In this document: positions 8,774-32,702 of the stretch, one piece after another
Position numbering within the stretch: the stretch's first letter is position 1
Layout of the letters: every line of letters begins with the position of its first letter
Notes under the pieces: model-generated
Databases searched by the model: none
Told to the model about the DNA's origin: nothing
Seen by the model: only the letters and a program-made list of their open reading frames with translations
Made by a program: the position numbers and the translations under genes
Source: Betaproteobacteria bacterium
GTDB lineage: Bacteria; Pseudomonadota; Gammaproteobacteria; Burkholderiales; SG8-39
DNA: 41,685 bases
Assembly: GCA_052387375.1 (NCBI GenBank)
Contig: JBQTJF010000261.1
Coordinates: forward strand, 1 to 41,685
Reading direction: 5' to 3'

Positions 8774-8795
8774 AATGCTTCCGATCGGAAGCATT
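8774..8795. repeat. 22-bp perfect palindrome, copy 1
   Basis: AATGCTTCCGATCGGAAGCATT. Confidence 0.95.
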
Positions 8796-8801
8796 GCTGT
8801 C

Positions 8802-11800
8802 TCATGCCGCTTCCCGTTTCAGAGTCCTGCGGTGCAGCAGGAAATAGGCGGCGGGAATCACGAACATGGACAGGAGCGGCGCGGTGATCATGCCACCGAT
8901 CATCGGCGCCGCGATGCGCTGCATGACCTCGGCGCCGGTGCCCTCGCTCCACATGATCGGGATCAGACCGGCGATGATCACTGCCACCGTCATTGCGACC
9001 GGCCTTACGCGCAGCACCGCGCCTTCAAGGATCGCGTCCTCGAGGTCGCTGCGCGAGAGGGCGACACCGGCCGCCAGGCGCCGCTCCACCGCCTGCTTGA
9101 GATACAGGATCATGACGACGCCGATCTCGGCCGCCACGCCGGCAAGCGCGATGAATCCCACCACGCCCGCGACCGAGAGGTTGTGGCCAAGGACATAGAT
9201 GTACCAGAAGCCGCCGACGAGGGAGAACGGCAACGACAGCATGATGAGCAGCGCTTCGCCCATGCGCTGGAACGCGAGGTACAGCAGCACGAGGATGATA
9301 AGCAGCACGAACGGCACCACCAGCGCGAGCCGCGCCTTGGCGCGCTCCAGGTACTCGAACTGGCCGGACCAGGCGAGCGAGACCCCCGCGGGCAGCTTCA
9401 CCTGCTCAGCCACCGCGCGCTGGGCGTCGGCGACCACCGAGCCCAGGTCGCGGCCGCGGATGTCGACGTAGATCCAGCCCGAGAGACGAGCGTTTTCGCT
9501 GCGCAGCATCGGCGGCCCGTCGGAAATGCGCACGGTGGCGACGCTCGAAAGCGGGACCTGCGCGCCGCGCTCGGTGACGATGGGCAAGCTCCTCAGCTTG
9601 TCGACCGAGTCGCGCACCTCGCGCGGGTAGCGCACGTTGATGGGGAAGCGGCTGCGGCCTTCGATCGTCTCGCCGATGTTGTCGCCGCCGATCGCCGCCG
9701 CTACCACCGATTGCACGTCCATGATGGAGAGCCCGTAACGCGCCGCGGCGAAGCGATCGATGGTGATGTCGATGTAGCGGCCGCCGCGCACGCGCTCGGC
9801 GAGCACCGACGAGACCCCGGGCACGTCCTTGACCACGCCCTCGATCGCCGCGGCCGCCCGCTCGATTTGCGCCAGGTCGGGCCCGGACACCTTGATGCCG
9901 AGCGGGCTTTTGATGCCGGTGGCGAGCATGTCGATGCGGTTGCGGATCGGCGGGATCCAGATGTTGGACAGTCCCGGCAGGCGCACGACGCGGTCCAGCT
10001 CCTCGACGAGCTTCTCCGGCGTCATGCCCGGGCGCCACTCCGCGCGCGGCTTGAGCTGCACTACCGTCTCGACCATTTCGAGCGGCGCGGGATCGGTCGC
10101 CGTCTCGGCGCGCCCGATCTTGCCGAACACGCTCTTCACCTCGGGAACCGTGGCGATCAGCTTGTCGGTCTGCTGCAGGAGCTGCGCCGCCTTGCCCGGC
10201 GACAAGCCGGGCAGCGCCGAGGGCATGTACAGCAGGTCGCCTTCGTAGAGCGGCGGCAGGAACTCCGTGCCGAGGCGGTGAATCGGCAGCCACATGGAAG
10301 CGGCGAGCAGCGCGGCGATGACGAGCGTCGTCCACGGCGCTCGGACGACCGCGCCCACCAGCGGCCGGTAGGCGGCGATCAGCCAGCGGTTGAGCGGGTT
10401 GCTTCTCTCGGCCGGGATGCGGCCGCGGATGAAGTATCCCATCAGCACCGGGACCAGCGTCACCGAGAGTCCGGCAGCGGCCGCCATGGCGTAGGTCTTG
10501 GTGTAGGCGAGCGGCGAGAACAGCTTGCCCTCCTGCGCCTGCAGAGCGAACACCGGGACGAAGGACAGCGTGATGATGAGCAGCGAGAAGAACAGCGCCG
10601 GCCCCACTTCATGCGCCGCGTCGCCGATGAGCAGCCAGCGCTGCTGGTTGGATATCTCCGCGCCGGGATGACGGTGGTGCCAGGCCTCGAGCTTCTTGTG
10701 GGCGTTCTCGATCATCACGATCGCCGCATCCACCATCGCGCCGATGGCGATGGCGAGTCCTCCTAACGACAGGATGTTGGCGTTCACCCCCTGGTAGTAC
10801 ATGACGATGAACGCGACCAGGATGCCGAGCGGCAGCGTCACGATGGCGACGAAAGCGCTTCTCAGGTGAACGAGAAACACCAGGCACACCAGCGCGACGA
10901 CGAGGAATTCCTCCAGCAGCTTCTCGGCGAGGTGGCGCACCGAGCGCTCGATGAGCCCCGAGCGGTCGTAGGTTTCGACGAGCTCGACGCCCTCGGGGAG
11001 GCTCGCCTTGAGCGCCGCCAGCTTCGCCTTGACCGCATGGATGGCCTCGAGGGCGTTCTTGCCGTGGCGCATGATGACGATGCCGCCCGCCACCTCGCCC
11101 TCGCCGTCGAGCTCGGAGATGCCGCGGCGCATCTCGGGGCCCATCTGGATGTGCGCCACCTCCTTCAGCATCACCGGCGTGCCCGCCTCGGTGGTCATGA
11201 GGGGGATGGCGGCGAAGTCCTCGAGCGTCTTCAGGTAGCCGCTCGCGCGCACCATGTATTCGGCCTCGCCAAGCTCGAGCACCGAGCCGCCGGTCTCGCG
11301 GTTGGCGTTCTGCACCGCCTGGATGACGCGGCCGTGGGGAATGCCGTACGCGCGCAGGCGCTCGGGGATGAGGACGATCTGGTATTGCCGCACCATCCCG
11401 CCCACGGAGGCCACCTCGGCGATGTCGGGCACGGCCTTCAGCTCGTAGCGCAGGAACCAGTCCTGGATCGCGCGCAGCTGCCCGAGATCGTGCCGGCCGC
11501 TGCGGTCGACGAGCGCGTACTGGTAGATCCAGCCCACGCCGGTGGCGTCCGGGCCGAGCGCGGGCTTGGCGGCGGCCGGCAGGCGCGACTGCGCCTGGTT
11601 CATGTATTCGAGCACGCGCGAGCGCGCCCAGTACGGATCGGTGCCGTCCTCGAACAGGATGTAGACGAACGAGTCGCCGAACATCGAGTAGCCGCGCACC
11701 GTCTTGGCGCCGGGAACCGACATCATGGTCGTGGCAAGCGGATAGGTGACCTGGTCCTCGACGATGCGCGGCGCCTGGCCGGGAAACGGCGTGCGGATGA

Positions 11801-11942
11801 TGACCTGGGTATCGGACAGATCGGGAATGGCATCGAGCGGCGTGCGCAGCAGCGAAATCACGCCCCAGGCGGCGACCAGCACTGTCGCCAGCAGCACCAG
11901 GAACCGGTTCGAGATCGACCAGCGGATCAGCGCGGCGATCAT
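8802..11942 (-). CDS. cusA: CusA/SilA heavy-metal RND efflux pump
   Basis: [51 protein letters not shown]. Confidence 0.95.
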
Positions 11943-13426
11943 TTCGCGGCCCCGATCCTCGTGATGACGTAGTTGCCGTCCTTGTCCGGCGCGGCGCGCA
12001 GCTCGAACTCCACCGCATCGCCCGGCTTGAGCGCGGAAAGCTGCGATCGGTCCTCGACGACGAAGCCCATCTGCATCGCCGGCCACTGCAGGGAGGCGAT
12101 CGGCTCGTGCTGCAGCTCGACCTGCCCGCTCTCGCGATCCACCCCGGCGAGCTTGCCGCGCCCCTGGTGACCTGCCTCCTTCGCGGCGTCCTGCAGCCGC
12201 GCGATGGCGCCCGAGAGGCTCGCCTCGGAGTCGATGAGGAACTGGCCGGAGAGGACCACGGTGGCGCCGGGCCCGATGCCCTTGCGGATCTCCGACAGGC
12301 CGCCGTGCTCGACGCCCACCTCGACCTGCTGCGGGCTGAAGCGGCCCTTGCCGAGCGACACGATGACGATGCTGCGCTCCCCGGTGCGAATCACCGCCTC
12401 GGTGGGTGCGAGCAGCATCTCGCGCCCGCTACCGGCGGCGAACGAGAGCGTGGCGAACATGCCCGGCTTGAGCAGCTCGCCCGGATTGGCGAGCTCGATG
12501 CGCGTGCGCACGGTGCGGGTCGCCGCGCTCACCTCGGGGAGGATCGCACCGACGCGGCCCTCGAACTTCATGTCGGGATAGGCGGCGGCGCGCGCTTCGG
12601 CGCGGCTTCCCGGGACCACCGCCGCGGCCTGTGTCTCGGGAATTTCGGCGTTCACCCACACCGTGGAGAGATCCACGATGCGGAACATGGTGTGACCCGG
12701 CATCACCGCCATGCCCTCGCGCAGACCGAGCTCGGCGATGACGCCGGAAATGGGCGCGTAGCGCGTGAAGCGCTGCCGTACGCGGCCCGCGCGCTCGATC
12801 GAGGCGATCTCGCCCTCCGTCATGCCGAGCAGCGCGAGGCGCTGACGCGCCGCCTGCGCGAGCGGCTGCACGTCCGCGGAAGAGCTCCTTCGGAGCAGCA
12901 GGTACTCCTCCTGCGCGCCGGTCCACTCGGGGTACAGCATGTCGACCAGCGGCGCGCCTTTCCTCACTGGGTCGAGCGGCGCGCGCGCATGCAATTTCTC
13001 GACGAAGCCCGCCGCGCGCGCCTGGAGCTGCACGACGCCGCGCTCGTTGTACGCAACCGTGCCGACCGCGTCGAAACGCCGCTCCAGCGTTCCCAGCTTC
13101 ACCACTGCGGTACGCACGCCGAGGTTCTGCACCACCTGCGGGCTGATGGTCACCGCGCCGCCCTCGATTTCGTCCGCGTACTTTGGCACGAGCTGCATGT
13201 CCATGAAAGGCGACTTGCCGGGCTTGTCGAAGCGCTGCTGCGGATACATCGGGTCGTACCAGTACAGGACCCGCTTGCCCGCGCTGCCCTGGTTTTCATT
13301 TCCGGGGGCTTGCTGTGCGAGCGGGGGCACCGCGCTCATCACGCGGTGCTCGGCGTACCGATAGCCGCCATAACCGGCCGCGGCGAGCGCGGCCAGCGCG
13401 AAAAGGCCCAGGATCATCTTTCTCAT
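11939..13426 (-). CDS. cusB: CusB periplasmic adaptor with a C-terminal CusF-like domain
   Basis: [39 protein letters not shown]-terminal [16 protein letters not shown]. Confidence 0.93.
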
Positions 13427-14673
13427 CGCGTGCTCTCTTGCGGGTACAGATAGCTCAGATTGGCCCAGGCCTTGGCGCGCTCGGCGAGCGCCTGGATCAG
13501 GCCCAGCTCGTTCTCGGTCACCATGCGCTCCGACTCGAGAACCGCTCCGAGCTCGCTCCTGCCACCACGGTACGCGGCAAGCGAAGCGGTGACGCGGTCG
13601 CGCGCCAGCGGCAGGAGCGTGCGCTCGAAGCGCTCGATGCGACGCTGCGCGGTATCGAAATCGGCGAGCCAGCCGCGAACCTCGGCCTCCCGCATCCGCC
13701 GGGCGTCCTCGCGCATGGCGCGCGTCTGCTCGAGCTCGGCGAGGCGCGAAGCGACGTCGCGGTCCTGGCGACGCTCCGCCCGCCAGGGCAAATCGAACGC
13801 CACCATGACCGTGAGCATGTTTTCGAAGTAGGGCCGGCGCTGCCCGTAGCCCACTTCCAGCATCCAGTCGGATTTCTTCATGCTGGTGGCAAGGTCCACC
13901 TCGGCACGGGCGAGCGCTTCGCGCCGATCGAAAGTGCGCAGCTCCGGGTGCTCGGCGAGCCGTGCGACAAGCTCGTGGCGAGGCTGCGCGAACGCAGTGG
14001 TATCGGGCGGATCGGCAAGCGGGCGCTTGGCCGCCTCGCCGAGCCAGCTTGCCAGCATGATGCGCGCCTTCTCGACGGCCCGCTCCTGCTCGAGCAGCTT
14101 GTCGTTCGCCTGCTCGAACGCCTGGCGCAGCATGAAAGCGTCGGCCGCGCCCTGCCTGCCGCGGGCAATCGCCGGCGAAAGAGAGTCCAGGTGCAGCCGG
14201 AACTGGCCCGCCAGCCGCTCGAGCGCGGCGCGCGAGCGCTCGGCGTAGTGCAGCTCCAGCCACGAAGTGGCGATGTCGCGCTGGAGGAGCGCCTCCTGCG
14301 CGGCCAGGTTCGCGCCTTCGACGCCGCGCGCACGCTCGGCGCGCAGGTTGCGCGCCTCGCGCTTCGCGCTGTTCGGGAATTCCTGGGTCCAGCCGATGGC
14401 GCGCGCGGTCATGAAGTCGCGGTCGTAGCGCAAGCGGTCCTCTCCCGTGACGGGCAGGTTCTCGATGCCCAGGCGCAGCTTCGGGTCCGGCAGCTCGCCG
14501 GCCCGGCCGACCTGCTCGCGCGCCGCGTCCACCATGTGGCGCTGGGCGGCGAGCCGCGGCGATTGCGCGAGCCCCGAGCGGACCGCCTCCTCAAGCGACA
14601 GCGGTTGTGCCCCGGCACCCAGCGCGAGCACCGCCAGGGAAGCGGCGGCGAACGTCTTCGCAATTACGTGCAT
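13423..14673 (-). CDS. TolC/CusC-type outer-membrane efflux protein
   Basis: Signal peptide, LPDPKLRLGIENLP, helical repeats; directly upstream of cusB. Confidence 0.88.
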   Translation of the reverse strand: MHVIAKTFAAASLAVLALGAGAQPLSLEEAVRSGLAQSPRLAAQRHMVDAAREQVGRAGELPDPKLRLGIENLPVTGEDRLRYDRDFMTARAIGWTQEFPNSAKREARNLRAERARGVEGANLAAQEALLQRDIATSWLELHYAERSRAALERLAGQFRLHLDSLSPAIARGRQGAADAFMLRQAFEQANDKLLEQERAVEKARIMLASWLGEAAKRPLADPPDTTAFAQPRHELVARLAEHPELRTFDRREALARAEVDLATSMKKSDWMLEVGYGQRRPYFENMLTVMVAFDLPWRAERRQDRDVASRLAELEQTRAMREDARRMREAEVRGWLADFDTAQRRIERFERTLLPLARDRVTASLAAYRGGRSELGAVLESERMVTENELGLIQALAERAKAWANLSYLYPQESTR

Positions 14674-14676
14674 GTC

Positions 14677-14758
14677 GATCTCCAAGCGGCGTTAAACGCC
14701 CGCGCGCAGCGCGCGGGCGGCAAGGCGATTTCAGCCGAGCGAGTCGGCCGTGGAGATC
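14677..14758 (-). promoter_or_regulatory. RBS-sequestering stem-loop between leader 1 and tolC
   Basis: GATCTCCA (14677-14684) pairs with TGGAGATC (14751-14758); inner GC-rich hairpin. Confidence 0.7.
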
Positions 14759-15140
14759 AGATCAGGAAGGAGTGCAGCAGGATGCGCGCCGGCGGGGCGC
14801 CCGGCGGCGGCGCCTGGAGGCCCGTGGGCGGCGAACCTCGGTCGTCACGACGCTCCAGCAGCAGCACCGGCAGGTCGGCGGGGCTGCGTACGAGAGCGAC
14901 AGCAAGGCCGGCGAGTTGCAGGTCCGAGGTGCAATGCGCGACGCAACGGTTGCCGTAAAGCGAGTCGAAGCCGGAGACCGATGCCCCACAGCAGCCATCC
15001 TCGCCCGCCGGCGCCATGGCGAGCGCGAGCGCGCCGCGCTCGACCGGGCAGTCGGCAAGCGAGAGGCTCGCCTGGGCGAAGCCCAGCAGCGCGATCAGCG
15101 CTATGGCGATCCGGCGGATGATTCGAGCGCGCATTCTCAT
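14757..15140 (-). CDS. Exported Cys/Pro-rich leader protein 1 (CutF-like)
   Basis: Signal peptide, CC and CVAHC, C-terminal PPPGAPPARILLHSFLI; TAGAAT -10-like box at 15153-15158. Confidence 0.75.
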   Translation of the reverse strand: MRMRARIIRRIAIALIALLGFAQASLSLADCPVERGALALAMAPAGEDGCCGASVSGFDSLYGNRCVAHCTSDLQLAGLAVALVRSPADLPVLLLERRDDRGSPPTGLQAPPPGAPPARILLHSFLI

Positions 15141-15175
15141 TGGCTGGGCAGCATTCTATAGGACTTATGACAGCG

Positions 15176-15913
15176 TCAGCCGATGCGCCCGAAGATCGGG
15201 AAGGTGCGCAGCATCCAGAAGCCGAAGGCGTTGAGCTGGCCGGTCAGCATGGCGATGCCCATCAGCACCACTACCGCACCGGCAATGTATTGCAGCCATG
15301 CCCCGGCGCGCCGCAGCCGGCGCATCGTGCCGAGCATCTCGCGCGTGAAGGCAGCCGTAACCAGAAACGGCACACCGAGTCCGGCGGCATAGACGGCGAG
15401 CAGAGCCACGCCCGTGGAGACCGAGGTCTGCACCGCCGTCACGGTGAGGATGGCGCCCAGCACCGGGCCGATGCACGGCGTCCAGCCGAAGCCGAAGGCG
15501 AGGCCGAGCACGTACGCGGCGAGCGGGTGGCCGCCGTGCAGCGCCGGGTGGAAGCGCAGCTCGCGCTGCGACCACGGCAGCAGGCGGTCGAAGCCGAGCA
15601 TCAGCAGGCCGAAGAGGATGACGATGGCGCCGCCGATGACGTTGGCTTCGGTGCGGTATTGCAGCAGCAGGCGGCCGAGCGCCGTGGCGCTCGCGCCCAG
15701 CGCGATGAAGACGGTCGAGAAGCCGAGCACGAAGAACGCGCTCATCGACAGCGTGGCGAGGCGCGTGCGCGCCGCGGGCGCGGCATCGACACCGGGCGCC
15801 CCGCCGGCGACATAGGAGACGTAGGCCGGCACGAGGGGCAGCACGCAGGGCGAAAGGAAAGAAACCATGCCCGCGAGGAACGCCGCCGTGAGGCCTACGG
15901 AGCTCGCCTCCAT
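15176..15913 (-). CDS. ccdA: Cytochrome c biogenesis protein CcdA
   Basis: SFLSPCVLPLVP and FGWTPCIGPVL. Confidence 0.92.
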   Translation of the reverse strand: MEASSVGLTAAFLAGMVSFLSPCVLPLVPAYVSYVAGGAPGVDAAPAARTRLATLSMSAFFVLGFSTVFIALGASATALGRLLLQYRTEANVIGGAIVILFGLLMLGFDRLLPWSQRELRFHPALHGGHPLAAYVLGLAFGFGWTPCIGPVLGAILTVTAVQTSVSTGVALLAVYAAGLGVPFLVTAAFTREMLGTMRRLRRAGAWLQYIAGAVVVLMGIAMLTGQLNAFGFWMLRTFPIFGRIG

Positions 15914-16500
15914 CAGCCGCTCCCGGGGGCGATGAGCCGCCGTATCGACTCGAGCGCCGGCGCGCTGTCCCACTCTGCCGGCCCGACATGGCGGGCGATC
16001 TCGCGCCCTTCACGGTCGAGGAGCAGCGTGCTCGGTACCCCTACCACGCGAAGCGCGGCGCTGGCCTGCATCGAGCGGTCGACGTAGATGCCGAGCGCGT
16101 CGACGCCGATCTCGCGGTAGAAACGCCGTACCGCTTCCGCGCCACCGGCGTCGATGGCCAGCGCCACAACTTCGAAGCCGGGCCCCCCGAGCTTCTGCTG
16201 CAGGCGGGAGAGCGCCGGCATCTCTTCGCGGCAGGGCGCGCACCATGTCCCCCACACGTTGAGCAACACGTACCGGCCGCGGAAATCGGCGAGCGAGCGC
16301 GGCCGCCCCGCGCCGTCCTCGAAGGCGAGGTCGCGCACCGCGACCGGCGTCGCGTGGACTCGCAACACGCCGGCGGGTTCAGGGGCCAGCGCTGGAGCGG
16401 GCGGCGAGGCAAGGCGCGAGTCGAAGATCCAGATACCCACAGCCACACCGCCAAGGAGAGCGAGGCCGAGGGCCAAGCGCGGATAGATGCCCACGTTCAC
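15913..16500 (-). CDS. TlpA/ResA-like thiol-disulfide oxidoreductase
   Basis: N-terminal membrane anchor, WCAPCREEMP, GVPST. Confidence 0.9.
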   Translation of the reverse strand: MNVGIYPRLALGLALLGGVAVGIWIFDSRLASPPAPALAPEPAGVLRVHATPVAVRDLAFEDGAGRPRSLADFRGRYVLLNVWGTWCAPCREEMPALSRLQQKLGGPGFEVVALAIDAGGAEAVRRFYREIGVDALGIYVDRSMQASAALRVVGVPSTLLLDREGREIARHVGPAEWDSAPALESIRRLIAPGSG

Positions 16501-16539
16501 TGCTCCTCCTTACACGAGATGCTTCGCCATGCGGCTAAT

Positions 16540-17205
16540 TTAAATGGGCTTGAGCAGGGTTTCGATGCGCGCGAGGCTGCGCGCCGAATCGGCGACGATG
16601 GCGGCGGTGCCGCCCGGCAGCGGCATCACGGCCGCTTTCAAGCCCTTCGCCGATGCGCTGGCGCGCGAGCGGCGCGGCTCTCCCGGAAAGAAGAGCAGCG
16701 TCGCCTTGCCGAGCGGCGTCGTGACGAGGAAATGATGCGCCGAGCCTTCGGCAAGCGGGTAGAAGCAGATATAGCGCACGTCGCCGATCTCGGGAGGTAG
16801 CGACACGCTCATCTGGCGTGCCACCCGGGCGATGATGCCCGCCTCGACGGGCTTTGCCTCCGCAATCGTGCGTGCCTCCTCGTATACGACGAAGTCGATG
16901 CCCGCGCGCGCCAACGGATCGTCGGGCGCCAGCATCGCGCTCGCTGCCAGTCCCGCGGCCAGCAGGACTGCCGCGGCGGCCGCGTACCAGCCTGCCGCAC
17001 GCCGGGAGCTCGCCCGGGCCGCCAGCTTTTTCGCCAGCTCGCGCGGAACGCGAACGCGAAGCGCCTTTTCGATGCGCCGCTCGAGCTCCAGAGCGTTCGC
17101 GAGAAAGTCTCGGCAGGGGGCGCATTGCGCGGCGTGGGCAGCGGTAGCTGCATCCAGCTTGCGGGGATTGCTCGCCGCGGCGCGACGAAATTCCAGGCAG
17201 TTCAT
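16540..17205 (-). CDS. DUF3379-like putative zinc-finger membrane protein
   Basis: MNCLEFRR...H...CxxC N-terminus and one TM helix. Confidence 0.6.
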
Positions 17206-17999
17206 GTTCCAGAGACCCGATGGCGAGGGCGATCCTTACTCCACCACAGCAGCGCCGCGCCGGCGGCGATCATGGGCAGCGAAAGCCACTGCCCCATGGT
17301 GAGGCCGAGCGCGAGCAAGCCCAGATGCGCATCGGGCTCGCGGGTAAACTCCACAGCGAAGCGGAATACGCCGTAGCCGACGAGGAACAGGCCCGACACC
17401 TGGCCGCGCGGGCGCGGCTTCGAGGAGAACCACCACAGCAGCGCAAAGAGTGCCAGGCCTTCCAGCGCGGCCTGATAGAGCTGCGAGGGATGGCGCGGCA
17501 GCTCGCCAGCGCCGCGGAACACCATGCCCCAAGGCAGCGCCGTCGGGCGGCCCCACAGCTCGCCGTTGATGAAGTTGGCGATGCGCCCCGCGGCGATGCC
17601 GAGCGGCACCAGCGGAGCAACAAAGTCGGCCAGCCGCAAAAAGCCGATGCCGCGGCGCCACGCGACGAACGCCATGGCAACGATGACGCCGAGCAGCCCG
17701 CCATGGAACGACATGCCCCCATGCCAGATGGCGAGGATCTCCAGCGGATGCGAAGCATAGTAGGCCGGCTTGTAGAAGAGCACGTAGCCGAGCCGCCCGC
17801 CGAGGATCACGCCCAGCACCGCGGCAAATACCAGGCCCTCGAAATGCTCGCGCGTCAGCGGAGCGAGGCCTCCAGCGATCCTTCTCCTTCCCAGCCACCA
17901 GGCCGCCGCAAAGCCGGCGAGATACATCAGGCCGTACCAGCGCACCGCGAGCGGGCCGATGGAGAACGCCACCGGATCGATGTCGGGCTGGAACAGCAT
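17202..17999 (-). CDS. lgt: Prolipoprotein diacylglyceryl transferase (in frame with the upstream Met-rich ORF)
   Basis: [48 protein letters not shown]. Confidence 0.93.
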
Positions 18000-18353
18000 G
18001 GCGTGTACCGCGCGCCGCGATCCGCGCGCGCCCGGCTTGGTGTCCTTTACCTGACCCGCATACTTCGCGAGGATCTCGCCCATCTTCTGCATCATCTCCG
18101 CCTGCATCTGGAGCTGCAGCTTTTCGTTTCCAGGCGGGAGCTGCGGCATCATCGCGCCACCGCTCATCATACGGTGGCATCCCTGCATCATGTGCATCAT
18201 GTCCCCGCCCATCATTCCACCGCCGCTCATCATGCCACCGCCGCCCATCATGCCCGCCGGCGGCTTCTCGTGTTGCTGGGCGAGCACCGTTCCGGAACCG
18301 GCAAAGAGCAGAGCGCTGGCACAAACAATCCCGAGCATCGGTTTTGCATCCAT
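18000..18353 (-). CDS. Met/Gly-rich exported domain with no stop before lgt
   Basis: Signal peptide, then [27 protein letters not shown]; GGAGG RBS. Confidence 0.65.
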
Positions 18354-18375
18354 CTGCGCCTCCTTCGAAGGTCGA

Positions 18376-19401
18376 CTAGAAATGGCCGATCGATGCGGCG
18401 ATGATGCTTCCGGCCATCATCGAAATCGCGATGGCGAGCAGCCGCAAGCCGAGCCGGCGGTTCCGAGCCTGCAAGTCGGCTCGGGCGGCGGCGGACGGCG
18501 CTGGCGCGCGCCCGCGGCGGCTGTCGAGCGCCGATTCGCGCATGCCCCATAAACGGATGACCAGCAGGACGGCGACCGCCAACACGAGGCCGCCGGGAAT
18601 CCACATCACCAGGCCACCGAGCTGCTCATCGTGCAAGGCGCCGAGTTGCGGCCAAAGCCTGCCGTTAGCGCCATACGCCGGATAGAGAACCGAGGACTTG
18701 AGGGCGAGGTAGGCGGCCAGGGGCGTGGTGGCCGCGATGGCGGCGATGACCATGGTGAGCCGGGCGCCGTAACCGGCCCCCGGCGGCACCGGTCGTGGGT
18801 CGAACACCTGCGAGAAAAACAGAAGCCCGGAAAAGAGCATGGTGAAATGCATGAAGTAGTGGGTTGCATCGCCGGCAAGGGCGAGCTCGTGGTAGCGCGG
18901 GACGTGCCAGAAGTAAATCGAGCCCACGAAGAGCAGCGTCGCTGCCGCCGGCCGCGCGGCGATATGGAACATCGCGCGCAGGCCGCCGCTCGAGACAACC
19001 GGCGCCAAGGCGCCTGAGCGCAGAGCCGGCGGCATTCCTGCAACCAGGGTGGCCTGGGGCGCGGCGAGCATGACGAGCATCGGCCCGATCGACTGCAGCA
19101 AGAGGTGCTGAAGCTGGTGCAGGGCAAAGGAGTGCTCGGCGGCGGTATCGAGCGGCGACTGCAGCGACGCGAGCAGGGCTGTCATGCCGGCGAAGAAGCT
19201 CGCGTGCCGCCACGCGGAAACCGGATGCGACGCATTGCGCCGGCGCAGGATGCCGGCCGCGTAACTCCAGCCCAGGAGCAGCGTGAGAGCGAGAATCTCA
19301 GGCGCAAACGGCCATGCGAGCCTATCCGTTTGCGCTTCGCCGCCGTGCGCGAACGCGGCAAGCGGAATCGCAAGCGACAGCGCGCCCGCAAGCGCTCTCA
19401 T
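18376..19401 (-). CDS. Cytochrome c oxidase assembly protein (Caa3_CtaG family)
   Basis: [32 protein letters not shown]. Confidence 0.85.
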
Positions 19402-19715
19402 CGCTCCGGCGAGCGCCATTGCTCGTTGGGCCGGGAGCGACCCATCATCCCGCCGCCCATCATCCCGCCGCCGCCCATCATGCCGCCGTCGCCCATCATG
19501 CCCCGGCCCTCCGAGCGATTCGCTTCCAGGCGCGCGACGGCACGCTCCAGCCGCTCGAGGCTGCGCTCGAGCTGCTCGACCCTGCGTTCGAGCCGCGCCA
19601 CGGCGGCGCTCTGCGCTCCGGGCTGCGGCGTGCGCGCCCGGTCCTCTTGCGCCATGGCGGTGCCGGCCAGGAATACCGCCATGAGGGAAGTCGTGCAGAT
19701 TTTCACCTTGCTCAT
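19398..19715 (-). CDS. Small exported coiled-coil protein with a Met/Gly-rich tail
   Basis: Signal peptide, heptad LERRVEQLERSLERLER, GMMG repeats; overlaps the start/stop codons of both neighbours. Confidence 0.7.
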   Translation of the reverse strand: MSKVKICTTSLMAVFLAGTAMAQEDRARTPQPGAQSAAVARLERRVEQLERSLERLERAVARLEANRSEGRGMMGDGGMMGGGGMMGGGMMGRSRPNEQWRSPER

Positions 19716-20356
19716 AAAGCCTCCTTTTCCGATGCGGCGAGCAGCCGCTCGAGGTCTTCCACGATGCGCTCGACGCTGCGGCCGTTCTGGCTGATGTAGA
19801 GGCGCGGCTCGCCGCGCGCGTCGAACACCAGGATGCCGGTGCTGTGGTCGACCATGTAATGCCCGCCATGGCCGGCGTGCGTCTTGTCGGCGCGGTAATG
19901 GATCTTGAACTCCTTTGCCAAGCGCTCGGTTTCCTCAGGCGTGCCGCGCAGGCCGAGAAAGCCGGGATGGAAAGCCGCAACGTAGCTGGAGAGGACCTTG
20001 GGCGTATCGCGTTCCGGATCGACCGTGGCGAACAGGCCCTGCACCCGCGCGCCGTCCTGACCGAGCCGCCTTACCGCCTCGGCCATCTCCGCCAGGGCGA
20101 GCGGGCAGGCGTCCGGGCAGCTCGTGTACCCGAAAAAGAGCATCACGACCTTGCCGCGAAAATCTGCAAGGCTGCGGCGCCTGCCGTGGTGATCGGTGAG
20201 CTCGAAACCGCGCCCCCAGTCCACCCCGGTGATGTCGGTGGCGTGGAACTTGCGCTCCGGCGCTTGCCTGCCGCATGCGACGAGGAGCGGCGGCGCACTC
20301 GCCGCTGCCGCGAGCGCTGCGAGAAAGCCGCGTCGTGTCAGACTTGCCCTGACCAC
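19712..20356 (-). CDS. SCO1/SenC copper chaperone (Tat lipoprotein)
   Basis: TRRGFL...LVAC, FGYTSCPDACP, VDPERDT, DHS. Confidence 0.92.
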   Translation of the reverse strand: MVRASLTRRGFLAALAAAASAPPLLVACGRQAPERKFHATDITGVDWGRGFELTDHHGRRRSLADFRGKVVMLFFGYTSCPDACPLALAEMAEAVRRLGQDGARVQGLFATVDPERDTPKVLSSYVAAFHPGFLGLRGTPEETERLAKEFKIHYRADKTHAGHGGHYMVDHSTGILVFDARGEPRLYISQNGRSVERIVEDLERLLAASEKEAL

Positions 20357-20832
20357 CGAAGATCCCAACGCCTTCTGGAGAGGTACAGCGCGACCGGCGG
20401 CAACAGCAACCATTGCAGCAGCGGCGTCCAGCCGATCTCGATCTCCGCGAGCTGGAGGGTCGGCATCGCCTTGGCGTAAGCCCAGCTCGCGAGGACCTTC
20501 GTGTTCATCCATTCGCTGAACACGGTGTAGGCAATGCCGAAGAACGCGGTCAGCGCGGCGAGGCGACGCCATCGCCAGCCCTCGAGCGTCCGTTCGCGGC
20601 CCGCAATGAGAGCGAGCGCGAGGGCGGCGGTACCGATCAGGACGTCCCCGAGCGTGCAGTGCACGATCGAGAACGCGATGTAGCCCGGCGACGCCTCGCT
20701 CCACAGCGTGTACAGCGGCACGTGCACCGCCTCCCAGCCGAGGTTCAACGCGGCGAGCCACGGCAGGTAGCGCAGCGCGAGCATGCGCCACGCGGCGCGA
20801 TCGCGGTACCAGAGCATCGCCTCAGCCGCCAT
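20338..20832 (-). CDS. Hypothetical membrane protein
   Basis: ~4 TM helices; WE..HVPLY, HCTLGD, PLLQW; packed into the operon. Confidence 0.7.
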   Translation of the reverse strand: MAAEAMLWYRDRAAWRMLALRYLPWLAALNLGWEAVHVPLYTLWSEASPGYIAFSIVHCTLGDVLIGTAALALALIAGRERTLEGWRWRRLAALTAFFGIAYTVFSEWMNTKVLASWAYAKAMPTLQLAEIEIGWTPLLQWLLLPPVALYLSRRRWDLRWSGQV

Positions 20833-21700
20833 TGCCCCGCAGCGCTATCGGCATCCACGTCTTGCCGCCGTCCCTGGAGAGAAAGACGCTGCGCTCGAAG
20901 GTGGCGATCGCGTATTCGCCGCGCGACGCCGGGTTCTGCGCGATGTAGGCCACCGCATCGCGGCCGAGCGGCGGCAGCGCGACGCCCTGCGCCTGCCCGC
21001 CGCCGAGCGGGGCGCGCGCGAGCTTGGGCTGCCCATCGAAGGTGCCGTACCAGAGCTGCTTGCCGTCGAGATCGAAGAACACCGACAAGCCCTGCGCGCC
21101 GCTGGCGAGGGGCTTGAAGCTGCCCCCGGAGTCGCGCGACAGGAAAACGCCGCTCGACGTGGCGATCGCCACGATGGTGGCGTTCGCGGGATGCACGGCC
21201 AAAGCGATGGGGTCGCCCTGCAGGCCCGCGGCGCGCGAGCGCTTCCAGGCGAAGCCCTCGTTCACCGTGTAGTGCAGGCCGGTCTCGCGCATGCGCGAGC
21301 TCGGCGCCGGGTTCCACACGTAGATCGCGTTCGTGTTCCAGCTCGTGGCAAGCAGGTGGAAGTCCGTTTCGCCTTCCAGGCCGAGCTTCTCCCAGGTCTT
21401 GCCCCCATCCCTGCTGCGGATCAGGCCGAAGGGGTTCACCATGCCCGAGCCCGGCGCCGGATGCCCGCTGCTGTAGAGGCCCTTCGCCGTGGCGGAGAAG
21501 CCCATGTAGTCGTGCTGCGGCCCCGGGGCCTTGGACCACTTGCCGTTCTCGTAGACGGCGAGGCCGTGGTGGCTGGGCAGCATGAGCCGCTTGCCGTCGG
21601 GGCTGTAGGCGAGCCCGTGCACGTGGGTGAGCGTGACGGAAGCAAGGGCCGGCGCCGTGCCGAACATGAGGGCGGCGAGCGCGATTGCCAGTTTGTGCAT
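20822..21700 (-). CDS. F510_1955-like exported BNR/beta-propeller protein, copy A
   Basis: HVHGL, HDYMGF, SGHP, DFH, SRDGGKTW repeats. Confidence 0.85.
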   Translation of the reverse strand: MHKLAIALAALMFGTAPALASVTLTHVHGLAYSPDGKRLMLPSHHGLAVYENGKWSKAPGPQHDYMGFSATAKGLYSSGHPAPGSGMVNPFGLIRSRDGGKTWEKLGLEGETDFHLLATSWNTNAIYVWNPAPSSRMRETGLHYTVNEGFAWKRSRAAGLQGDPIALAVHPANATIVAIATSSGVFLSRDSGGSFKPLASGAQGLSVFFDLDGKQLWYGTFDGQPKLARAPLGGGQAQGVALPPLGRDAVAYIAQNPASRGEYAIATFERSVFLSRDGGKTWMPIALRGNGG

Positions 21701-21720
21701 CTTCTTCTCCAGGTAATGGA

Positions 21721-23792: not shown

Positions 23793-23804
23793 GAACTGCC
23801 TCCT

Positions 23805-25642: not shown

Positions 25643-25645
25643 CGA

Positions 25646-26075: not shown

Positions 26076-26143
26076 TTTTCCTTGGATGCTTCGTGTCCCG
26101 GCAAGTTCCTTGCCGGTCCTCGACATTGTAGCGCGACCTCGTC

Positions 26144-26752
26144 TTAGATCACTTTGGTCGTCTCGTCGGCCCCTATCGTTACGATGTCCTCGCTCGAGAA
26201 GGTGTGCGGCGGCACGACCAGGTTGGTTGGCGCCGGAGAGCCTTTGAACACCCGGCCTGCGAGATCGAACTTCGAGCCGTGGCAGGGGCAATAGAACCCG
26301 CCGGGCCAGCCCGGCTGCAGCGAGCCGGGCTCGGGGCGGTAGCTCGGCACGCAGCCCAGATGCGTGCACAGTGCGACCGTCACGAAAAGCTCCGGCCGGC
26401 GCGAGCGGGTGAGATTGCGTGCGTATTCCGGCTGCTGTGAAGAAACTTCGGAGCGCGGGTCGCTGAGCTCGCCGAGCACGGAATCGAGCCGTGCCAGCAT
26501 GTCCGGCGTCCGGCGCAGTATCCAAACCGGCTTGCCTCGCCATTCGACCGTTGTCAACTCGCCGGGCGCGATGCCCGACGCGTCGGACTCGACCGGCGCG
26601 CCTTGCGCGCGCGCCCGCTCGCTCGGGGCGAGGCTGGCAACGAAGGGGGCCGAAGCCCCGGCAATCGCCAAACCGCCGGCCGCGCCGGCGGCCTGCGTCA
26701 GGCGCCGGCGCGTGAGGTCCGGCGCGTAAGGATGAACGTCTGCATTACTCAT
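26144..26752 (-). CDS. petA: Rieske Fe-S protein (bc1 PetA type), stand-alone
   Basis: TRRR signal, CTHLGC, CPCHGSKFD, PAPTNL. Confidence 0.9.
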   Translation of the reverse strand: MSNADVHPYAPDLTRRRLTQAAGAAGGLAIAGASAPFVASLAPSERARAQGAPVESDASGIAPGELTTVEWRGKPVWILRRTPDMLARLDSVLGELSDPRSEVSSQQPEYARNLTRSRRPELFVTVALCTHLGCVPSYRPEPGSLQPGWPGGFYCPCHGSKFDLAGRVFKGSPAPTNLVVPPHTFSSEDIVTIGADETTKVI

Positions 26753-26861
26753 GGCGCTAGCTCGGCTGGATCCCTGGTCTAGTTCTAGATTTCGCCCGGC
26801 TGATTTCGTTCCTTCAATGTACGCCTCAACCGGGGCTGGTGGCCGGGGTCCGCGGGCCACA

Positions 26862-26883
26862 AATGCTTCCGATCGGAAGCATT
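26862..26883. repeat. 22-bp perfect palindrome, copy 2
   Basis: AATGCTTCCGATCGGAAGCATT. Confidence 0.95.
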
Positions 26884-26909
26884 ACTTCGGAGCGCCCTTT
26901 TTCATCGCT

Positions 26910-28277
26910 TCACGCCACCCGCACCACCGCCATCATGCCGCTCGCCTGGTGCTCGAGCACGTGGCAGTGGAACATCCAGTCGCCGGGGTTGTCCGCGACG
27001 AAGGCGATCTCGGCGCGGCTGTCCGGGTCGATGAGCACCGTGTCGCCCCAACTGTGGTTCTGCAGCACACGAAAGACGTGACCATGCAGGTGGATCGGGT
27101 GGTGCCACGACGTATCGTTCACCAACTCCAGCACATACGACTTGCCGCGAGCCAGGGTGAGCATCGGGGCGTGATGGTGGCCATTGTCCGGCATCACATC
27201 GCCGTTCACCGTCCAGAACATGCCCCGGTGCTCGCGCTGGCTCGGCATGGCGCCCATCATGCCGCCGCCGAAGACGATGCGATGGCGCTCGGCGCGCGAG
27301 AGATCGGGGACCGCTACGGGGTTTGGGGCGAGCCGTGGAACCGGCGCAAAGCTGCTCCGCAATGCATCCTCGTTGGTGTACTGCAAATCCAGCAGGCGGT
27401 AGGCGCGCCGCTGGTAGAAGTCGTCGATGACGCGATGGCGGCTGCCGGGGGCGCCCGGGCAATCGAGGATGAGGTCCGCGCGCATCGCCGGGCCGAGCAC
27501 CACGCGCTCGGCGCGGCGCGGCTCGACCGGATGGCCGTCGAGCGCAATGACCCACGGCGCGTGGCCCTCGAACCGCAGGCCGTAGATGCGCGCGCTCGAG
27601 GCGTTGATCAGGCGCAGGCGGAGGCGCTCGCCGGCGCGCACGGCAAATGATTCCCGAATGGCGCCGTTCACGGTGACGGTGTTGCCGATGCGGCCGGCGT
27701 GGCTCGCGTCCATGAAGCTCATGAAGTCGCCGGCGATGCGCGCCTCGCGGTCGAGGCGCCAGTCGGAAAGCACCCAGACGAGGTCGCGCTCCACGGCCGG
27801 CGGCTCGCGCTCCTCGACGACGAGCGCGCCGTACAGGCCGCGGCCGACCTGCTCCGGGCTGCCAAGGTGCGGGTGGTACCAGTACGTGCCGGCGTCGGGC
27901 AGGTCGAACTCGTAGACGAAGCGCCCGCCGTGCGCCGCGATCGGCGGCTGGGTGAGCCGCGGCACGCCGTCCATCGCGTTGGGCAGGCGGATGCCGTGGA
28001 AGTGCACCGTGGTGCCGGTGGCGAGCGCGTTCTCGACCTCGACGCGCAGGCGCTCGCCTTGCCGGAAGCGCAGCTCGGGACCCGGCACCGTGCCGCCGTA
28101 GGCCCATACGTCCGTGGCCGGATTGGCCTCGCCGACGAGCCGCTGGCGCGCCGGCGCCGCGCGCAGATTGCGCACGGCTTCGCCGGGAAACGCCAGCCGC
28201 GGCCCCAGCCCGGCGGCTGCGCCGCCGACGGCGAGGCGCAGAAACTGGCGCCTATCCATGCCATGCTCGGCGTTCAT
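26910..28277 (-). CDS. Tat-exported multicopper oxidase, paralog B
   Basis: [30 protein letters not shown]. Confidence 0.95.
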   Translation of the reverse strand: MNAEHGMDRRQFLRLAVGGAAAGLGPRLAFPGEAVRNLRAAPARQRLVGEANPATDVWAYGGTVPGPELRFRQGERLRVEVENALATGTTVHFHGIRLPNAMDGVPRLTQPPIAAHGGRFVYEFDLPDAGTYWYHPHLGSPEQVGRGLYGALVVEEREPPAVERDLVWVLSDWRLDREARIAGDFMSFMDASHAGRIGNTVTVNGAIRESFAVRAGERLRLRLINASSARIYGLRFEGHAPWVIALDGHPVEPRRAERVVLGPAMRADLILDCPGAPGSRHRVIDDFYQRRAYRLLDLQYTNEDALRSSFAPVPRLAPNPVAVPDLSRAERHRIVFGGGMMGAMPSQREHRGMFWTVNGDVMPDNGHHHAPMLTLARGKSYVLELVNDTSWHHPIHLHGHVFRVLQNHSWGDTVLIDPDSRAEIAFVADNPGDWMFHCHVLEHQASGMMAVVRVA

Positions 28278-28331
28278 GAAGCGATCGCGTATTGTCGCAG
28301 GGCTCGTGCTCGTCCTGGCGCTCGTGGACAG

Positions 28332-30629
<2,298 letters not shown>

Positions 30630-30640
30630 GTCCTGAGTCC

Positions 30641-30771
30641 TCACAGTCTTCCTGACTTGAGCGCGATCACGGCCCAGGCGATGCCGAGCAGGCCGGCCAC
30701 GACGAAGCCGATGATGCCGAGCAGCGGCACGCCATCGAGATGCGGCCCGGCCAGCACCATAGCCCGCTCAT
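30641..30771 (-). pseudogene. C-terminal remnant resembling an ABC1/UbiB-family kinase
   Basis: [35 protein letters not shown] resembles AarF/UbiB C-terminal tails; no kinase body; an out-of-frame ATG sits just upstream. Confidence 0.5.
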
Positions 30772-30795
30772 GATGTACGCCGATGCGCGAATCAT

Positions 30796-30811
30796 TTTGA
30801 CACAGGTCAAA
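30796..30811. promoter_or_regulatory. FNR/CRP-family box
   Basis: TTTGAC-ACAG-GTCAAA, a variant of TTGAT-N4-ATCAA, in a divergent intergenic region. Confidence 0.65.
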
Positions 30812-30927
30812 GACCAGGCTGACGCGGGGCTTGCGCACCTCGGCGACGGCCTCGGGCTCATAATCCTCGTGAAGAGGAATAGTCCGCGCGTCCTTCCGTT
30901 TACCAGCGCAGCAGAGGAGAACTCGCC

Positions 30928-31773
30928 ATGCGCAAACCCGTCCGTTCGTTCCAGCACCTGTTGCTCGTTCTCGCGCTCGCCGCGGGCTGCAGCGCGTTCA
31001 GCCCTGGCGCGCTCGCCCAGTCCGGCCCGCTAAAACTCGAGTGGGTCACCTGGTCGTTCTTCCGCTTCACCACGCCGGGCGGAAAGGTCATCCTCACCAA
31101 CCCGTTCATCACCGGCAACCCGGACGCCGCGGCCGGCATCAAGCTCGAGGACATCGCCAAGGCCGACCTGATCCTGTTCACCGACGCCCACCGCGACGAG
31201 CTCGGCGACACGGTGGAGATCGCCAAGAGAACCGGGGCGAGGGTCGTCACGCCGGCCTTCGAGGCGGGCAGCCTGCTCATCGCCTGGGGCGTGCCCGAGG
31301 CGCAGGTGATGCGCCGCAATCCGGGCGCGCGCTTCGCATGGGAAGGGATCACCATCCGCGTCGTCGGCGCGGTGCACGGCTCGGGAGCGCGCGACCCCGC
31401 GGGCGACTACAAGCCGATCTATGGCGGCGTGGCGGCAGGCTTTGTCGTGACCTTCGAGAACGGCTACACGGTGTACTTCATGGGCAGCTCCGCGGCGACG
31501 CAGGACATGGCGTTGTGGGCCGAGGCCTACAAGCCCGACGCGATGATCTTCCTGATGGCGCCGAACAGCGAGCCGCTCGACGCGGCGATGGCGGTGAAGC
31601 TCGTCGCCGGCAAGAGCCCAAAGCTGAAGACCCTGCTGCCGCACCACCACCGTGTGACGCCGCCCCCGGGCGCGCTCAGCGCCGCGGACATGCGCAAGGC
31701 GCTCGACGCCATGGGCGTCAATATCCCGATCACCATGCTCGCGCCCAAGCAGTCGATCGAGCTGTCGAAGTAG
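30928..31773 (+). CDS. Exported MBL-fold protein (UPF0173-like) with a degenerate metal motif
   Basis: GAGGAG RBS, signal peptide, ILTNPFITGNP, DLILFTDAHRDE, AVHGS. Confidence 0.8.
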   Translation: MRKPVRSFQHLLLVLALAAGCSAFSPGALAQSGPLKLEWVTWSFFRFTTPGGKVILTNPFITGNPDAAAGIKLEDIAKADLILFTDAHRDELGDTVEIAKRTGARVVTPAFEAGSLLIAWGVPEAQVMRRNPGARFAWEGITIRVVGAVHGSGARDPAGDYKPIYGGVAAGFVVTFENGYTVYFMGSSAATQDMALWAEAYKPDAMIFLMAPNSEPLDAAMAVKLVAGKSPKLKTLLPHHHRVTPPPGALSAADMRKALDAMGVNIPITMLAPKQSIELSK

Positions 31774-31776
31774 GCG

Positions 31777-32088
31777 TCATTTCCAGACGCAGTCGAGCGC
31801 GTCGAGCGCCATGTGGATGACCAGCCCCAGCGCGGGCAGCCGGGTAGCAGGCGGGACGAGCAGGAGCACATACGCGGCGATCGCCCGATAGCTGTGCAGC
31901 GGATGAAAGCCGATGCCGCAACGGGCCGGATCGTAGATCGGCTCGGCCAGCAGATGATCGAGGTCGACCAGCATGGTGGCGAACATGACGAGCCAGGCCC
32001 GCCTCCAGCGCGGCCGGAAGAAGGGCCACGCCACCGCGCCGGGGACGGCGGCGTGAAGCACCAGGTGAAGCGCGGCGAGCCAGGTCAC
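31777..32088 (-). CDS. DUF6122-like small membrane protein
   Basis: LHAAVP, TMLVDLDHLLAEPIYDPARCGIGFHPLH, HMALD. Confidence 0.75.
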   Translation of the reverse strand: MTWLAALHLVLHAAVPGAVAWPFFRPRWRRAWLVMFATMLVDLDHLLAEPIYDPARCGIGFHPLHSYRAIAAYVLLLVPPATRLPALGLVIHMALDALDCVWK

Positions 32089-32096
32089 TTTCGAAG

Positions 32097-32675
32097 GTGC
32101 TGCGCTATCGCAACCTGCCGCCGCACCGCGTGCGCTTTTCCGCGGCCGGGCTGGAGATCGCGGTGACCGGCTCGGCCATGCCGTTGATCTATCCCCTGCC
32201 GCGCAAGCTGCAGGTCGCGGGCATTCGCGTCCAGGGCAGGGTCGAGGGAACATTGCGCCTTCCCGCCGAGCGCCAAGGCGAGAAGAGGTTCGATGACTAC
32301 GCCTTGCGCATCGGCCTGGTGGAGCCGGGCACGCGCACGCTGGGCTTCGTCGAGCGCCAGACCGCGCCGCGCTGGGTGCGCAAGCTCTACGAGCTGGCGC
32401 CGCCGGGCAGCGGCATCTCGCGCATTCATTTCTTCAATGTCGGCGCCACGGCGGCGCAGATCGGCCGCGCGCGGCAGCATCCGCAAAGCGACCTGATGCT
32501 GGAGAAAGTCGTGGCGTCACCGCGGGCGGACGGGCGCTTCGATTTCGCCTATCCGCTCGAGCGTCCGCTCGACACCGTGGCCATCTGGCTCAGCGCCGAC
32601 GGCGACGACACCGGATCCACGTTCACCGTCTTCGTCGAGCGCATCGAGCTGGCCTTGGCAAAGCGCCCGCGCTGA
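32097..32675 (+). CDS. DUF3047-like protein, probably 5'-truncated
   Basis: DDYALRI, W...DGDDTGS; no signal peptide or RBS. Confidence 0.5.
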   Translation: MLRYRNLPPHRVRFSAAGLEIAVTGSAMPLIYPLPRKLQVAGIRVQGRVEGTLRLPAERQGEKRFDDYALRIGLVEPGTRTLGFVERQTAPRWVRKLYELAPPGSGISRIHFFNVGATAAQIGRARQHPQSDLMLEKVVASPRADGRFDFAYPLERPLDTVAIWLSADGDDTGSTFTVFVERIELALAKRPR

Positions 32676-32680
32676 GGCAA

Positions 32681-32702
32681 AATGCTTCCGATCGGAAGCA
32701 TT
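32681..32702. repeat. 22-bp perfect palindrome, copy 3 (4 bp before the HTH gene)
   Basis: AATGCTTCCGATCGGAAGCATT. Confidence 0.95.

Follow-up and report, generated by a model that had tools for sequence, protein, structure and literature searches.

Introduction

Why should one perfect 22-bp palindrome recur at three gene junctions of a single copper-resistance island? The palindrome, AATGCTTCCGATCGGAAGCATT, lies in contig JBQTJF010000261.1 of a Betaproteobacteria bacterium (GenBank assembly GCA_052387375.1), all 41,685 bp of which are referred to here as the window. The window is contig C261 of the genome designated G000 (3.82 Mb, 389 contigs, 91.5 % complete), which, like all of the genomes compared here, is a fragmented metagenome-assembled genome. 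A preliminary description of the window had offered two explanations: the palindrome is the operator of an adjacent HipB-like protein, with a reach that extends to nearby methyltransferase and Rieske genes, or it is a recombination or insertion site or a repetitive extragenic palindromic (REP)-like element that marks cassette boundaries.

As far as sequence comparison can tell, the 22-mer most likely serves as operator for the solo HipB-like repressor encoded next to it. The fuller proposal, that this operator belongs to a unit of approximately 60 bp which has also been copied without the gene and has spread in the manner of REPs or miniature inverted-repeat transposable elements (MITEs), appears probable and is set out below together with the alternatives.

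The palindrome in the window

The 22-mer is found exactly at 8774–8795, 26862–26883 and 32681–32702, and the window (69 % G+C) has no further site at up to three mismatches. No match to the 22-mer arose in any of 100 dinucleotide shuffles of the window, which bears out the earlier view that three copies are improbable by chance. Using gene calls from an own codon model (4151 genes in G000, 91 % coding), all three copies are intergenic and close to the 3′ end of a gene, as had been described, with stop codons 6, 26 and 5 nt away. The CA(A) left flank noted before is also real and is part of a conserved nAnAAT element. However, the statement that the wider flanks are unrelated is wrong for the left side, where all three copies share a unit of approximately 35 nt made up of a GGSCYTGG-type box, a spacer of approximately 17 nt and nAnAAT. 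The features concerned are as follows.

32707–32961, + strand: 84-aa solo XRE-family helix-turn-helix (HTH) gene, HipB/Y4mF-like (Pfam HTH_31/HTH_3)
32681–32702, no strand: palindrome copy 3, putative operator of the adjacent HTH gene (the ‘master’ copy)
32649–32704, + strand: HTH upstream unit, with box GGCCTTGGCA, a 17-nt spacer, CAAAAT (sharing 3 nt with the start of the palindrome) and the palindrome
8774–8795, no strand: palindrome copy 1, exact match, an orphan without an HTH gene
8741–8797, + strand: orphan unit 1, with degenerate box CGGCCATGG (8743–8751), spacer, CCAAAAT and palindrome
26862–26883, no strand: palindrome copy 2, exact match, an orphan
26828–26885, + strand: orphan unit 2, with box CCGGGGCTGG (26830–26839), spacer, CACAAAT and palindrome

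An HTH gene family with its own palindromes

Copy 3 begins 5 nt past the stop codon at 32675 of the open reading frame 32097–32675, the last codons of which contain the box, and ends 4 nt before the GTG start (32707) of the HTH gene. A sigma-70-like TTGGCA-17-CAAAAT was called at 32655–32683 (9/12 matches, none in shuffles). The best solved relative of the HTH protein is HipB(Lp) (8ezt, E=1.7e-9), and the HTH gene has relatives elsewhere in G000, first seen in a DNA search with window positions 32000–33100; by tblastn the paralogs number ten. In nine of the ten, a perfect or near-perfect palindrome of 20–22 bp lies 4–30 nt before the start codon and each of these palindromes is different: GCTTC (the window), CCGT(T/C), CCTCC, GTAAC, CGGTA, GGGTA, GGGAC with an AAATTT centre, TTGTACCC and TGTGTCC. 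The box and nAnAAT precede each of them.

The paralogous proteins are 38–70 % identical to the HTH protein of the window, and their variation is centred on positions 34–35, 43–44 and 47–49, corresponding to helix 2 and the start of the recognition helix. Homology among the loci stops at the HTH stop codon and the neighbours are unrelated genes (GreA, an ABC transporter, pilins, DUF520). No HipA gene was found beside any of the ten, PF07804 matches in the genome being confined to C379 and C113, and the possibility of a hipBA module was dropped because an adjacent HipA gene is missing.

The pairing of gene and palindrome extends to related genomes. Close HTH homologs in relatives have the cognate palindrome just upstream in eight of eight cases, and orthologs in G041 and G076 retain both helix and palindrome (GRKFLWQ/GRKFLFQ with GCTTC, TRKFVYS with GGGTA, GKRFVLE with TGTACCC, and GVRFLRE with TGTGTCC). 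The exception is an orthologous pair, G000:C351 and a pseudogene in G041:C308, which share GHRFVYD though their operators differ in the outer arm bases. The G041 member (C308:5103–5253) is a decaying gene with an internal TAA and a missing N-terminal part that still has a palindrome upstream, and its G000 ortholog is intact.

In a set of 61 genomes of the genus, searched with a threshold of E at most 1e-10, the HTH family was found in G000 (ten genes), G041 (seven, including the pseudogene), G076 (one) and G004, where there is one weak generic match without an upstream palindrome. The pattern AATN5CGATCGN5ATT, described in the next section, matched 120 times in G000, 49 times in G041 and three times in G076. 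The only other palindromic sites were in G047 (two) and G008 (one), both less than 65 % complete; five non-palindromic chance matches occurred in four genomes, 52 of the 61 genomes had no match, and a control pattern had none anywhere. HTH family and palindromes thus occur together in three of the 61 congeners. The GCTTC core had no copy in a first sample of 24 congeners. G041, in which the CGATCG-centred sites are of the GGGTA, GCTTC and GTTCC types only, is also without the CGGTA- and GTAAC-type HTH genes.

A scan across a wider collection, made with a single peptide pattern taken from the HTH alignment, returned mainly distant relatives. Distant Y4mF/HipB-like HTH genes in other phyla likewise have CGAT-centred inverted repeats just upstream, which suggests that reading CGAT-centred sites may be a habit of this family. 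The upstream repeats are often in two or three copies, e.g. TATACCCGATAGGGTATA-like in Bacteroidota, and could define an operator grammar for the family.

A genome-wide family of palindromes

The 22-mer has 21 exact and 14 one-mismatch copies in G000, making 35 in all. A search around every CGATCG revealed that it is one sub-family, designated GCTTC, of a superfamily with the structure AAT-N5-CGATCG-N5′-ATT, in which the arms vary among sub-families and are always compensated. At up to one arm mismatch G000 contains 142 sites (about 140–150 overall), and the 5-mer classes are GGGTA (40), GCTTC (33), CGGTA (29), GTAAC (9), GGGTC (8), GTTCC (8), CCTCC (4) and minor ones. An unbiased census gave 324 perfect palindromes with arms of at least 9 nt against approximately 48 expected, and the nine commonest cores all come from this family, including an AAATTT-centred variant. 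The latter sub-family (core TGGGTCAAATTTGACCCA) is found at G000:C180:405–470 and seven other sites. The preliminary description held that hundreds of genome-wide copies would make the element a generic REP; with 35 copies of the sub-family and about 150 of the superfamily, the numbers are below that, though the REP-like dispersal itself is evident.

The palindrome is the symmetric end of an asymmetric unit. The last three bases of nAnAAT are the first three of the palindrome and, approximately 17 nt outward, there is a GGSCYTGGAA box, which is found on exactly one side of the palindrome at 115 of the 142 sites and on the left in each of the three window copies. Pairwise comparison of 25 oriented GCTTC units gives an identity of 0.85 over nAnAAT and the palindrome together, against 0.56 in the box, 0.35 in the spacer and 0.27 further out. 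The box reads GGCCATGG in 39 of 47 G041 units and GGCC(C/T)TGG in 100 of 115 G000 units.

In G041 the consensus spans the whole unit including the spacer, and the weaker G000 consensus is the same sequence. Hence, the whole unit represents the ancestral repeat, its copies evolve in concert within each genome, and those of G000 look older. The idea that the 17-nt spacer is always native DNA was overturned by the spacer consensus of the G041 units. When 47 G041 units were aligned, their ends were (gCA)TACCGG... and ...ATT-TC, without inverted termini or a recurrent flanking duplication; one site has a possible TGAGC duplication, read by eye from the alignment.

Genomic placement of the copies

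The 142 G000 sites divide into 75 in tandem intergenic regions, 36 in convergent ones and 6 in divergent ones, with another 15 that touch a called gene at its end and ten at contig edges. The numbers expected from intergenic lengths for the tandem, convergent and divergent regions are 67.8, 20.6 and 28.6, respectively (chi-square p=2.8e-7), and none of the 142 lies deep inside a gene. Among the 34 rows of GCTTC type listed, 21 are tandem, 9 are convergent, none is divergent and 4 touch a gene end.

Sixty-one of the 142 units are nested with other repeats, 26 being beside or between copies of R2 (AAAACGTGGTCTGTCCCTG, a 19-mer) and 35 beside or between copies of R3, and the remaining 81 stand alone. 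R3 is a G/C-hairpin-rich repeat (CCCCCCTGACAAGGGGGG, CCCCCGATCCAGTCGGGGGG, GAGCGGGGGGTT) present on many contigs, e.g. at C310:4020–4150 and C166:5030–5160; its core has 92 copies, with inverted arms around 18 palindrome units and one-sided copies beside 17 more. Flanking inverted repeats of at least 8 nt surround 30 of 114 oriented units compared with 6 of 112 controls.

At copy 1, the palindrome is 6 nt from the stop codon (8802) of a cusA-like gene and 24–48 nt before the methyltransferase start, both genes being on the minus strand, and the unit is directed into the 3′ end of the cusA-like gene. For the methyltransferase, a start at 8726 with GGAGG 8 nt upstream looks more likely from the sequence than the alternative ATG at 8749, which is overlapped by the CCATGG of the degenerate box (8743–8751). 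Copy 2 is 26 nt from the stop codon (26910) of a multicopper oxidase gene (26910–28277) and 109 nt before the start (26752) of the Rieske gene (26144–26752), again with both genes on the minus strand and the unit directed into the 3′ end of the oxidase gene. No strict sigma-70-like call and no terminator-like call was made at either orphan unit.

By Pfam content the island includes a CusCBA-type pump, a P-type ATPase, three multicopper oxidases, CusF and Dsb/SCO1 genes, and it is conceivable that the orphans form a true regulon, i.e. that they are operators selected for the benefit of their neighbours (copper-resistance genes, methyltransferase, Rieske) and not selfish copies. We consider this unlikely. 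Three GCTTC copies, including that of the HTH gene itself, are clustered in 24 kb of the island, a CCGTC orphan is approximately 1 kb from its own HTH gene on C20, and palindromes in tandem regions are a median of 72.5 nt ahead of the next start codon. Furthermore, at all seven orthologous sites where G000 and G041 share a sub-family, the palindrome is identical at 22 of 22 positions while identity in the flanks is 0.30–0.78, and in two cases described below the box arose by substitution in native codons, as if selected. However, as many as 36 of the 117 classified intergenic sites lie in convergent regions, where there is no promoter to control, and only 6 in divergent ones. The units are randomly oriented with respect to transcription (35 co-oriented, 31 anti), many are inside other repeats, and the orthologous place in G041 may have the site, lack it or have one of another sub-family. 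Exact identity over 22 bp in 21 of 35 copies is also far beyond what binding specificity would need. The units at copies 1 and 2 point away from their proposed targets and into the 3′ ends of the upstream genes and, with the 36 convergent orphans, this leaves the proposed extension to the methyltransferase and Rieske genes unsupported, though a symmetric operator could act on a nearby methyltransferase or Rieske promoter. The other part of that proposal, an operator of the adjacent HipB-like protein, is supported by nine of ten paralogs, eight of eight homologs, co-variation and co-occurrence.

Turnover at orthologous sites

Two G000 orphans have orthologous sites that are empty in relatives. 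In the second case, two outgroups have overlapping stop and start codons with no intergenic DNA; G000 has an insert of approximately 49 nt with a CGGTA palindrome, and G041 has a different insert composed of an R3 arm and an AAATTT-type unit.

Forty-seven orphan sites of G041 were mapped onto G000. Of these, 25 could be placed on two sides and were sorted by script into 7 with the same palindrome, 11 with another palindrome and 7 empty; the other 22 could not be placed on two sides and are uninformative, since contigs break at repeats. Some classes changed when the alignments were read. Two ‘other’ sites belong to the same sub-family and differ by one mismatch; three ‘empty’ sites are occupied, by a GTAAC-type site, a decayed GGGTA-type unit in opposite orientation and a GGGTA/GTAAC chimera, and at least two are truly empty. 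At several orthologous sites (e.g. L221) the flanks, spacer and box are homologous and the palindrome interior is wholly different; others differ by one symmetric change (GGGTA/CGGTA or GGGTA/GGGTC). One unit (L224) is inverted between the same R3 arms in G000 relative to G041. The chimera, at G000:C310:6085–6106, consists of a GTAAC arm and a GGGTA arm joined at CGATCG, and its G041 ortholog is a normal GGGTA palindrome.

G041 has a collinear copper island in which the palindrome and the HTH gene are present. Palindromes are missing from the G041 places orthologous to copies 1 (the methyltransferase junction) and 2 (the oxidase 3′ end), where the gene neighbours also differ. The methyltransferase and BNR-repeat genes are adjacent in G041 (C113, L159) and separated by approximately 12 kb in G000; this G000-only segment at copy 1 (window 8750–20860) carries CusCBA-type pump, DsbD, redoxin, Lgt, CtaG and SCO1 genes.

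Such differences bring to mind a site-specific recombination or cassette-boundary site, with arms around a 6-bp crossover core, CGATCG, and modules exchanged, inverted or deleted between copies. The arm-core-arm layout, the chimera joined at the core, the inverted unit and the swapped interiors would all fit, and synteny with G041, the closest relative, breaks to one or both sides of each of the three window copies. Against this, no recombinase was linked to the sites, though a systematic search for a co-occurring one was not made, and among approximately 150 sites there is only the single chimera and no half site. Recombination at the palindromes is hence an improbable explanation. Evidence for a role at module boundaries is likewise weak, because the island is a mosaic of shared and unshared blocks at many other junctions. 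What stands of the boundary proposal is its REP-like, dispersed aspect.

R2, RAYT and hairpins

Alternatively, the palindrome might be an ordinary REP or REPIN mobilized by the RAYT (Y1) transposases of the genome, with no functional tie to the HTH gene. G000 has three PF01797 (Y1) genes. One palindrome unit adjoins a 232-aa RAYT-like Y1 transposase gene on C11 (1714–2412, minus strand) and 12 units are enclosed by inverted pairs of R2. An extragenic location at gene ends is also typical of REPs according to the abstracts of three reports (PMC3116915, PMC3337134, PMC3733652). However, the RAYT-like gene is itself flanked by inverted R2 (C11:1639–2467) and not by the palindrome, and no palindrome was found within 2 kb of the other two Y1 genes. 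R2 has 121 copies in G000 at up to three mismatches, forms 30 inverted pairs (gaps of 7–109 nt, including the 12 that enclose a unit) and is present in 46 of the 61 genomes of the genus compared with five for the palindromic sites. R2 and the RAYT-like gene are a classical REPIN-type system that is independent of the palindromes, and RAYT was rejected as the cognate gene of the palindrome on the grounds that R2 flanks it and is genus-wide. As the palindrome also lacks the GTAG or CGTC tag and the co-variation with the HTH gene would be unaccounted for, an ordinary REP is very unlikely.

Folding of the palindrome as RNA gives a stem of 9 bp closed by the 4-nt loop GAUC (42-nt pieces, minimum free energy −14.7 to −17 kcal/mol, z −2.0 to −3.2), contrary to the earlier statement that it has no loop; with no terminator-like site called at the three window copies, a terminator reading was discarded. 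An element acting at the RNA level, as terminator or mRNA-stabilizing hairpin at gene 3′ ends, is hardly credible despite this stable fold, the enrichment after gene 3′ ends and between convergent genes and the UUUUGG that follows the hairpin in the orientation of copy 1, as no Rfam family reached the gathering score in the window, the asymmetric unit is oriented randomly relative to transcription, and both the HTH pairing and the sub-family structure would go unexplained.

A proposed dispersed repressor operator

We return to the proposal of a repressor operator copied without its gene. Behind the sequence anatomy, copy numbers, gene context, HTH–palindrome pairing, co-occurrence and insertion polymorphism observed above, we infer protein binding, autoregulation, promoter activity and a copying mechanism, as follows. 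A dimer of the HTH protein would read two 8-bp arms flanking the conserved CGATCG centre. The protein's own site overlaps a promoter-like element, formed by the GGSCYTGG(AA) box, approximately 17 nt and nAnAAT, from which self-repression would follow. The box-spacer-palindrome unit of approximately 60 bp would have been copied without the gene, copies 1 and 2 being two of approximately 34 orphans of the sub-family, and the ten HTH paralogs, each with a palindrome sub-family of its own, would account for approximately 150 sites in all. The orphans would then constitute a REP/MITE-type repeat that carries a high-affinity repressor site, lands in either orientation, whether beside a gene end or within the loop of another repeat, and can appear, disappear or change sub-family in the time over which related species diverge.

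A number of observations weigh against this interpretation. The match of the HTH protein to TIGR03070 (couple_hipB, Y4mF/HipB antitoxin; E=1.1e-18, 67 bits) is below the curated cut-off of 71.65. One paralog, on C342, has no palindrome upstream. The C180 HTH gene has GGGAC-AAATTT as its own site and the seven AAATTT-centred orphans are GGGTC-AAATTT, and neither the GTTCC nor the GGGTC orphans have an exactly matching HTH gene in G000. The three HTH-bearing genomes may belong to one clade and, as kin are not independent, the co-occurrence of gene and palindrome may rest on few independent events. Strict sigma-70 calls (−35 and −10 hexamers, 16–18 nt spacing, at least 9/12 matches) were obtained for no more than 6 of the 142 units, compared with 0 of 549 control windows, and the two species have different boxes, making a role for the box as a −35 element doubtful. 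No transposase, terminal inverted repeat or target duplication was found to be tied to the unit. Finally, simple cut-and-paste fails to explain two cases in which the box lies within substituted native codons.

Three of these points call for a word more. A strict sigma-70 promoter in every unit was abandoned in view of the low pass rate, and ‘promoter-like’ is used here of the HTH genes only. In the C180 case, the G041 ortholog has GGGTC as its own site. The two substituted cases are at G000:C381:11477–11510 and G000:C103:28550–28584, where the box falls in the last codons of a native gene, in which clustered substitutions bring the sequence closer to the box consensus. The changes are PRIEDH* to PRLEDH* and VSLARALFA to VSLFQALFA, and both sides stay native.

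The 22-bp identity over dozens of loci, the exchange of interiors in place and the box in substituted native codons remain unexplained by a dispersed repressor operator. A bolder version of the proposal is as follows. The HTH gene and the unit of approximately 60 bp might be a self-propagating pair of a new kind, comparable to RAYT–REPIN but built around a non-catalytic, antitoxin-derived DNA-binding protein that protects, targets or templates the copying of its own site, with paralogs diversifying along with site families and one sub-family overwriting another in place. Intergenic DNA would, in effect, have perfect palindromes and a nearby box ‘written’ into it in concert, and we regard this as a tentative idea that is rather unlikely to be correct.

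Significance

If the interpretation as a dispersed repressor operator is correct, these palindromes would be a natural bacterial case of a repressor operator amplified like a mobile repeat, in which paralogous repressors and site families diversify in step. They would also parallel, in bacteria, the way in which transposable elements spread transcription-factor sites in eukaryotes. The ten helices and ten palindromes, differing at few positions, would provide repressor/operator pairs that are already orthogonal and whose recognition code can be read, and the family would serve to test how perfect palindromes are kept identical at dozens of loci as the DNA around them drifts. Solo HipB-like ‘antitoxins’ can, it appears, exist independently of toxins. 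A literature search, as far as its listings and the opening parts of abstracts go, returned no dispersed palindrome family tied to an HTH gene family.

Comparison with known systems

The system resembles the HipB/Y4mF antitoxin repressors of type II hipBA modules in that the protein is a small XRE-type HTH protein, with TIGR03070 as the best family match and HipB as the best solved relative, and in that an inverted repeat is found just upstream of its own gene, where it probably overlaps a promoter-like element; distant members have CGAT-centred repeats in the same position. Unlike hipBA, there is no HipA-type toxin gene adjacent to the ten paralogs, the operator has been amplified to dozens of gene-less copies, and the HTH gene has radiated into paralogs with distinct operators.

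With REP/REPIN–RAYT systems it has in common that the repeats are short, palindromic, extragenic and placed at gene ends, that each family numbers tens of copies and a genome has several families, that one copy of each family lies beside a single-copy ‘cognate’ gene, and that the distribution is lineage-restricted. However, the cognate gene here encodes an 84-aa HTH protein without a catalytic domain, the palindrome adjoins just one side of that gene, and the unit is asymmetric (box, spacer, palindrome). One abstract describes REPs as imperfect palindromes, one end of which carries a conserved GTAG or CGTC tag (PMC3733652). The palindrome described here is perfect, ends in AAT...ATT and has no such tag.

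Some bacterial MITEs carry regulatory sites, an example being the Correia elements of Neisseria. Like these, the unit is short, dispersed and non-coding, carries promoter-like and protein-binding sequence to new intergenic locations and shows insertion polymorphism between relatives. It differs from MITEs in that no terminal inverted repeats, clear target duplication or related transposase were found, and in that the gene for the putative binding protein is part of the unit in its full-length form.

Arrays of near-perfect palindromic sites for a single HTH-type protein are also known, among them the parS sites of ParB, the Noc and SlmA sites and the RDRM sites of the DdrO regulon. Like the present family, these sites number in the tens per genome and are palindromes of high similarity that a dimeric DNA-binding protein would read. 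They are, however, conserved across genera, neither restricted to gene ends nor nested in repeats, and without paralog-specific sub-families, whereas here 52 of 61 congeners have no palindrome match at all.

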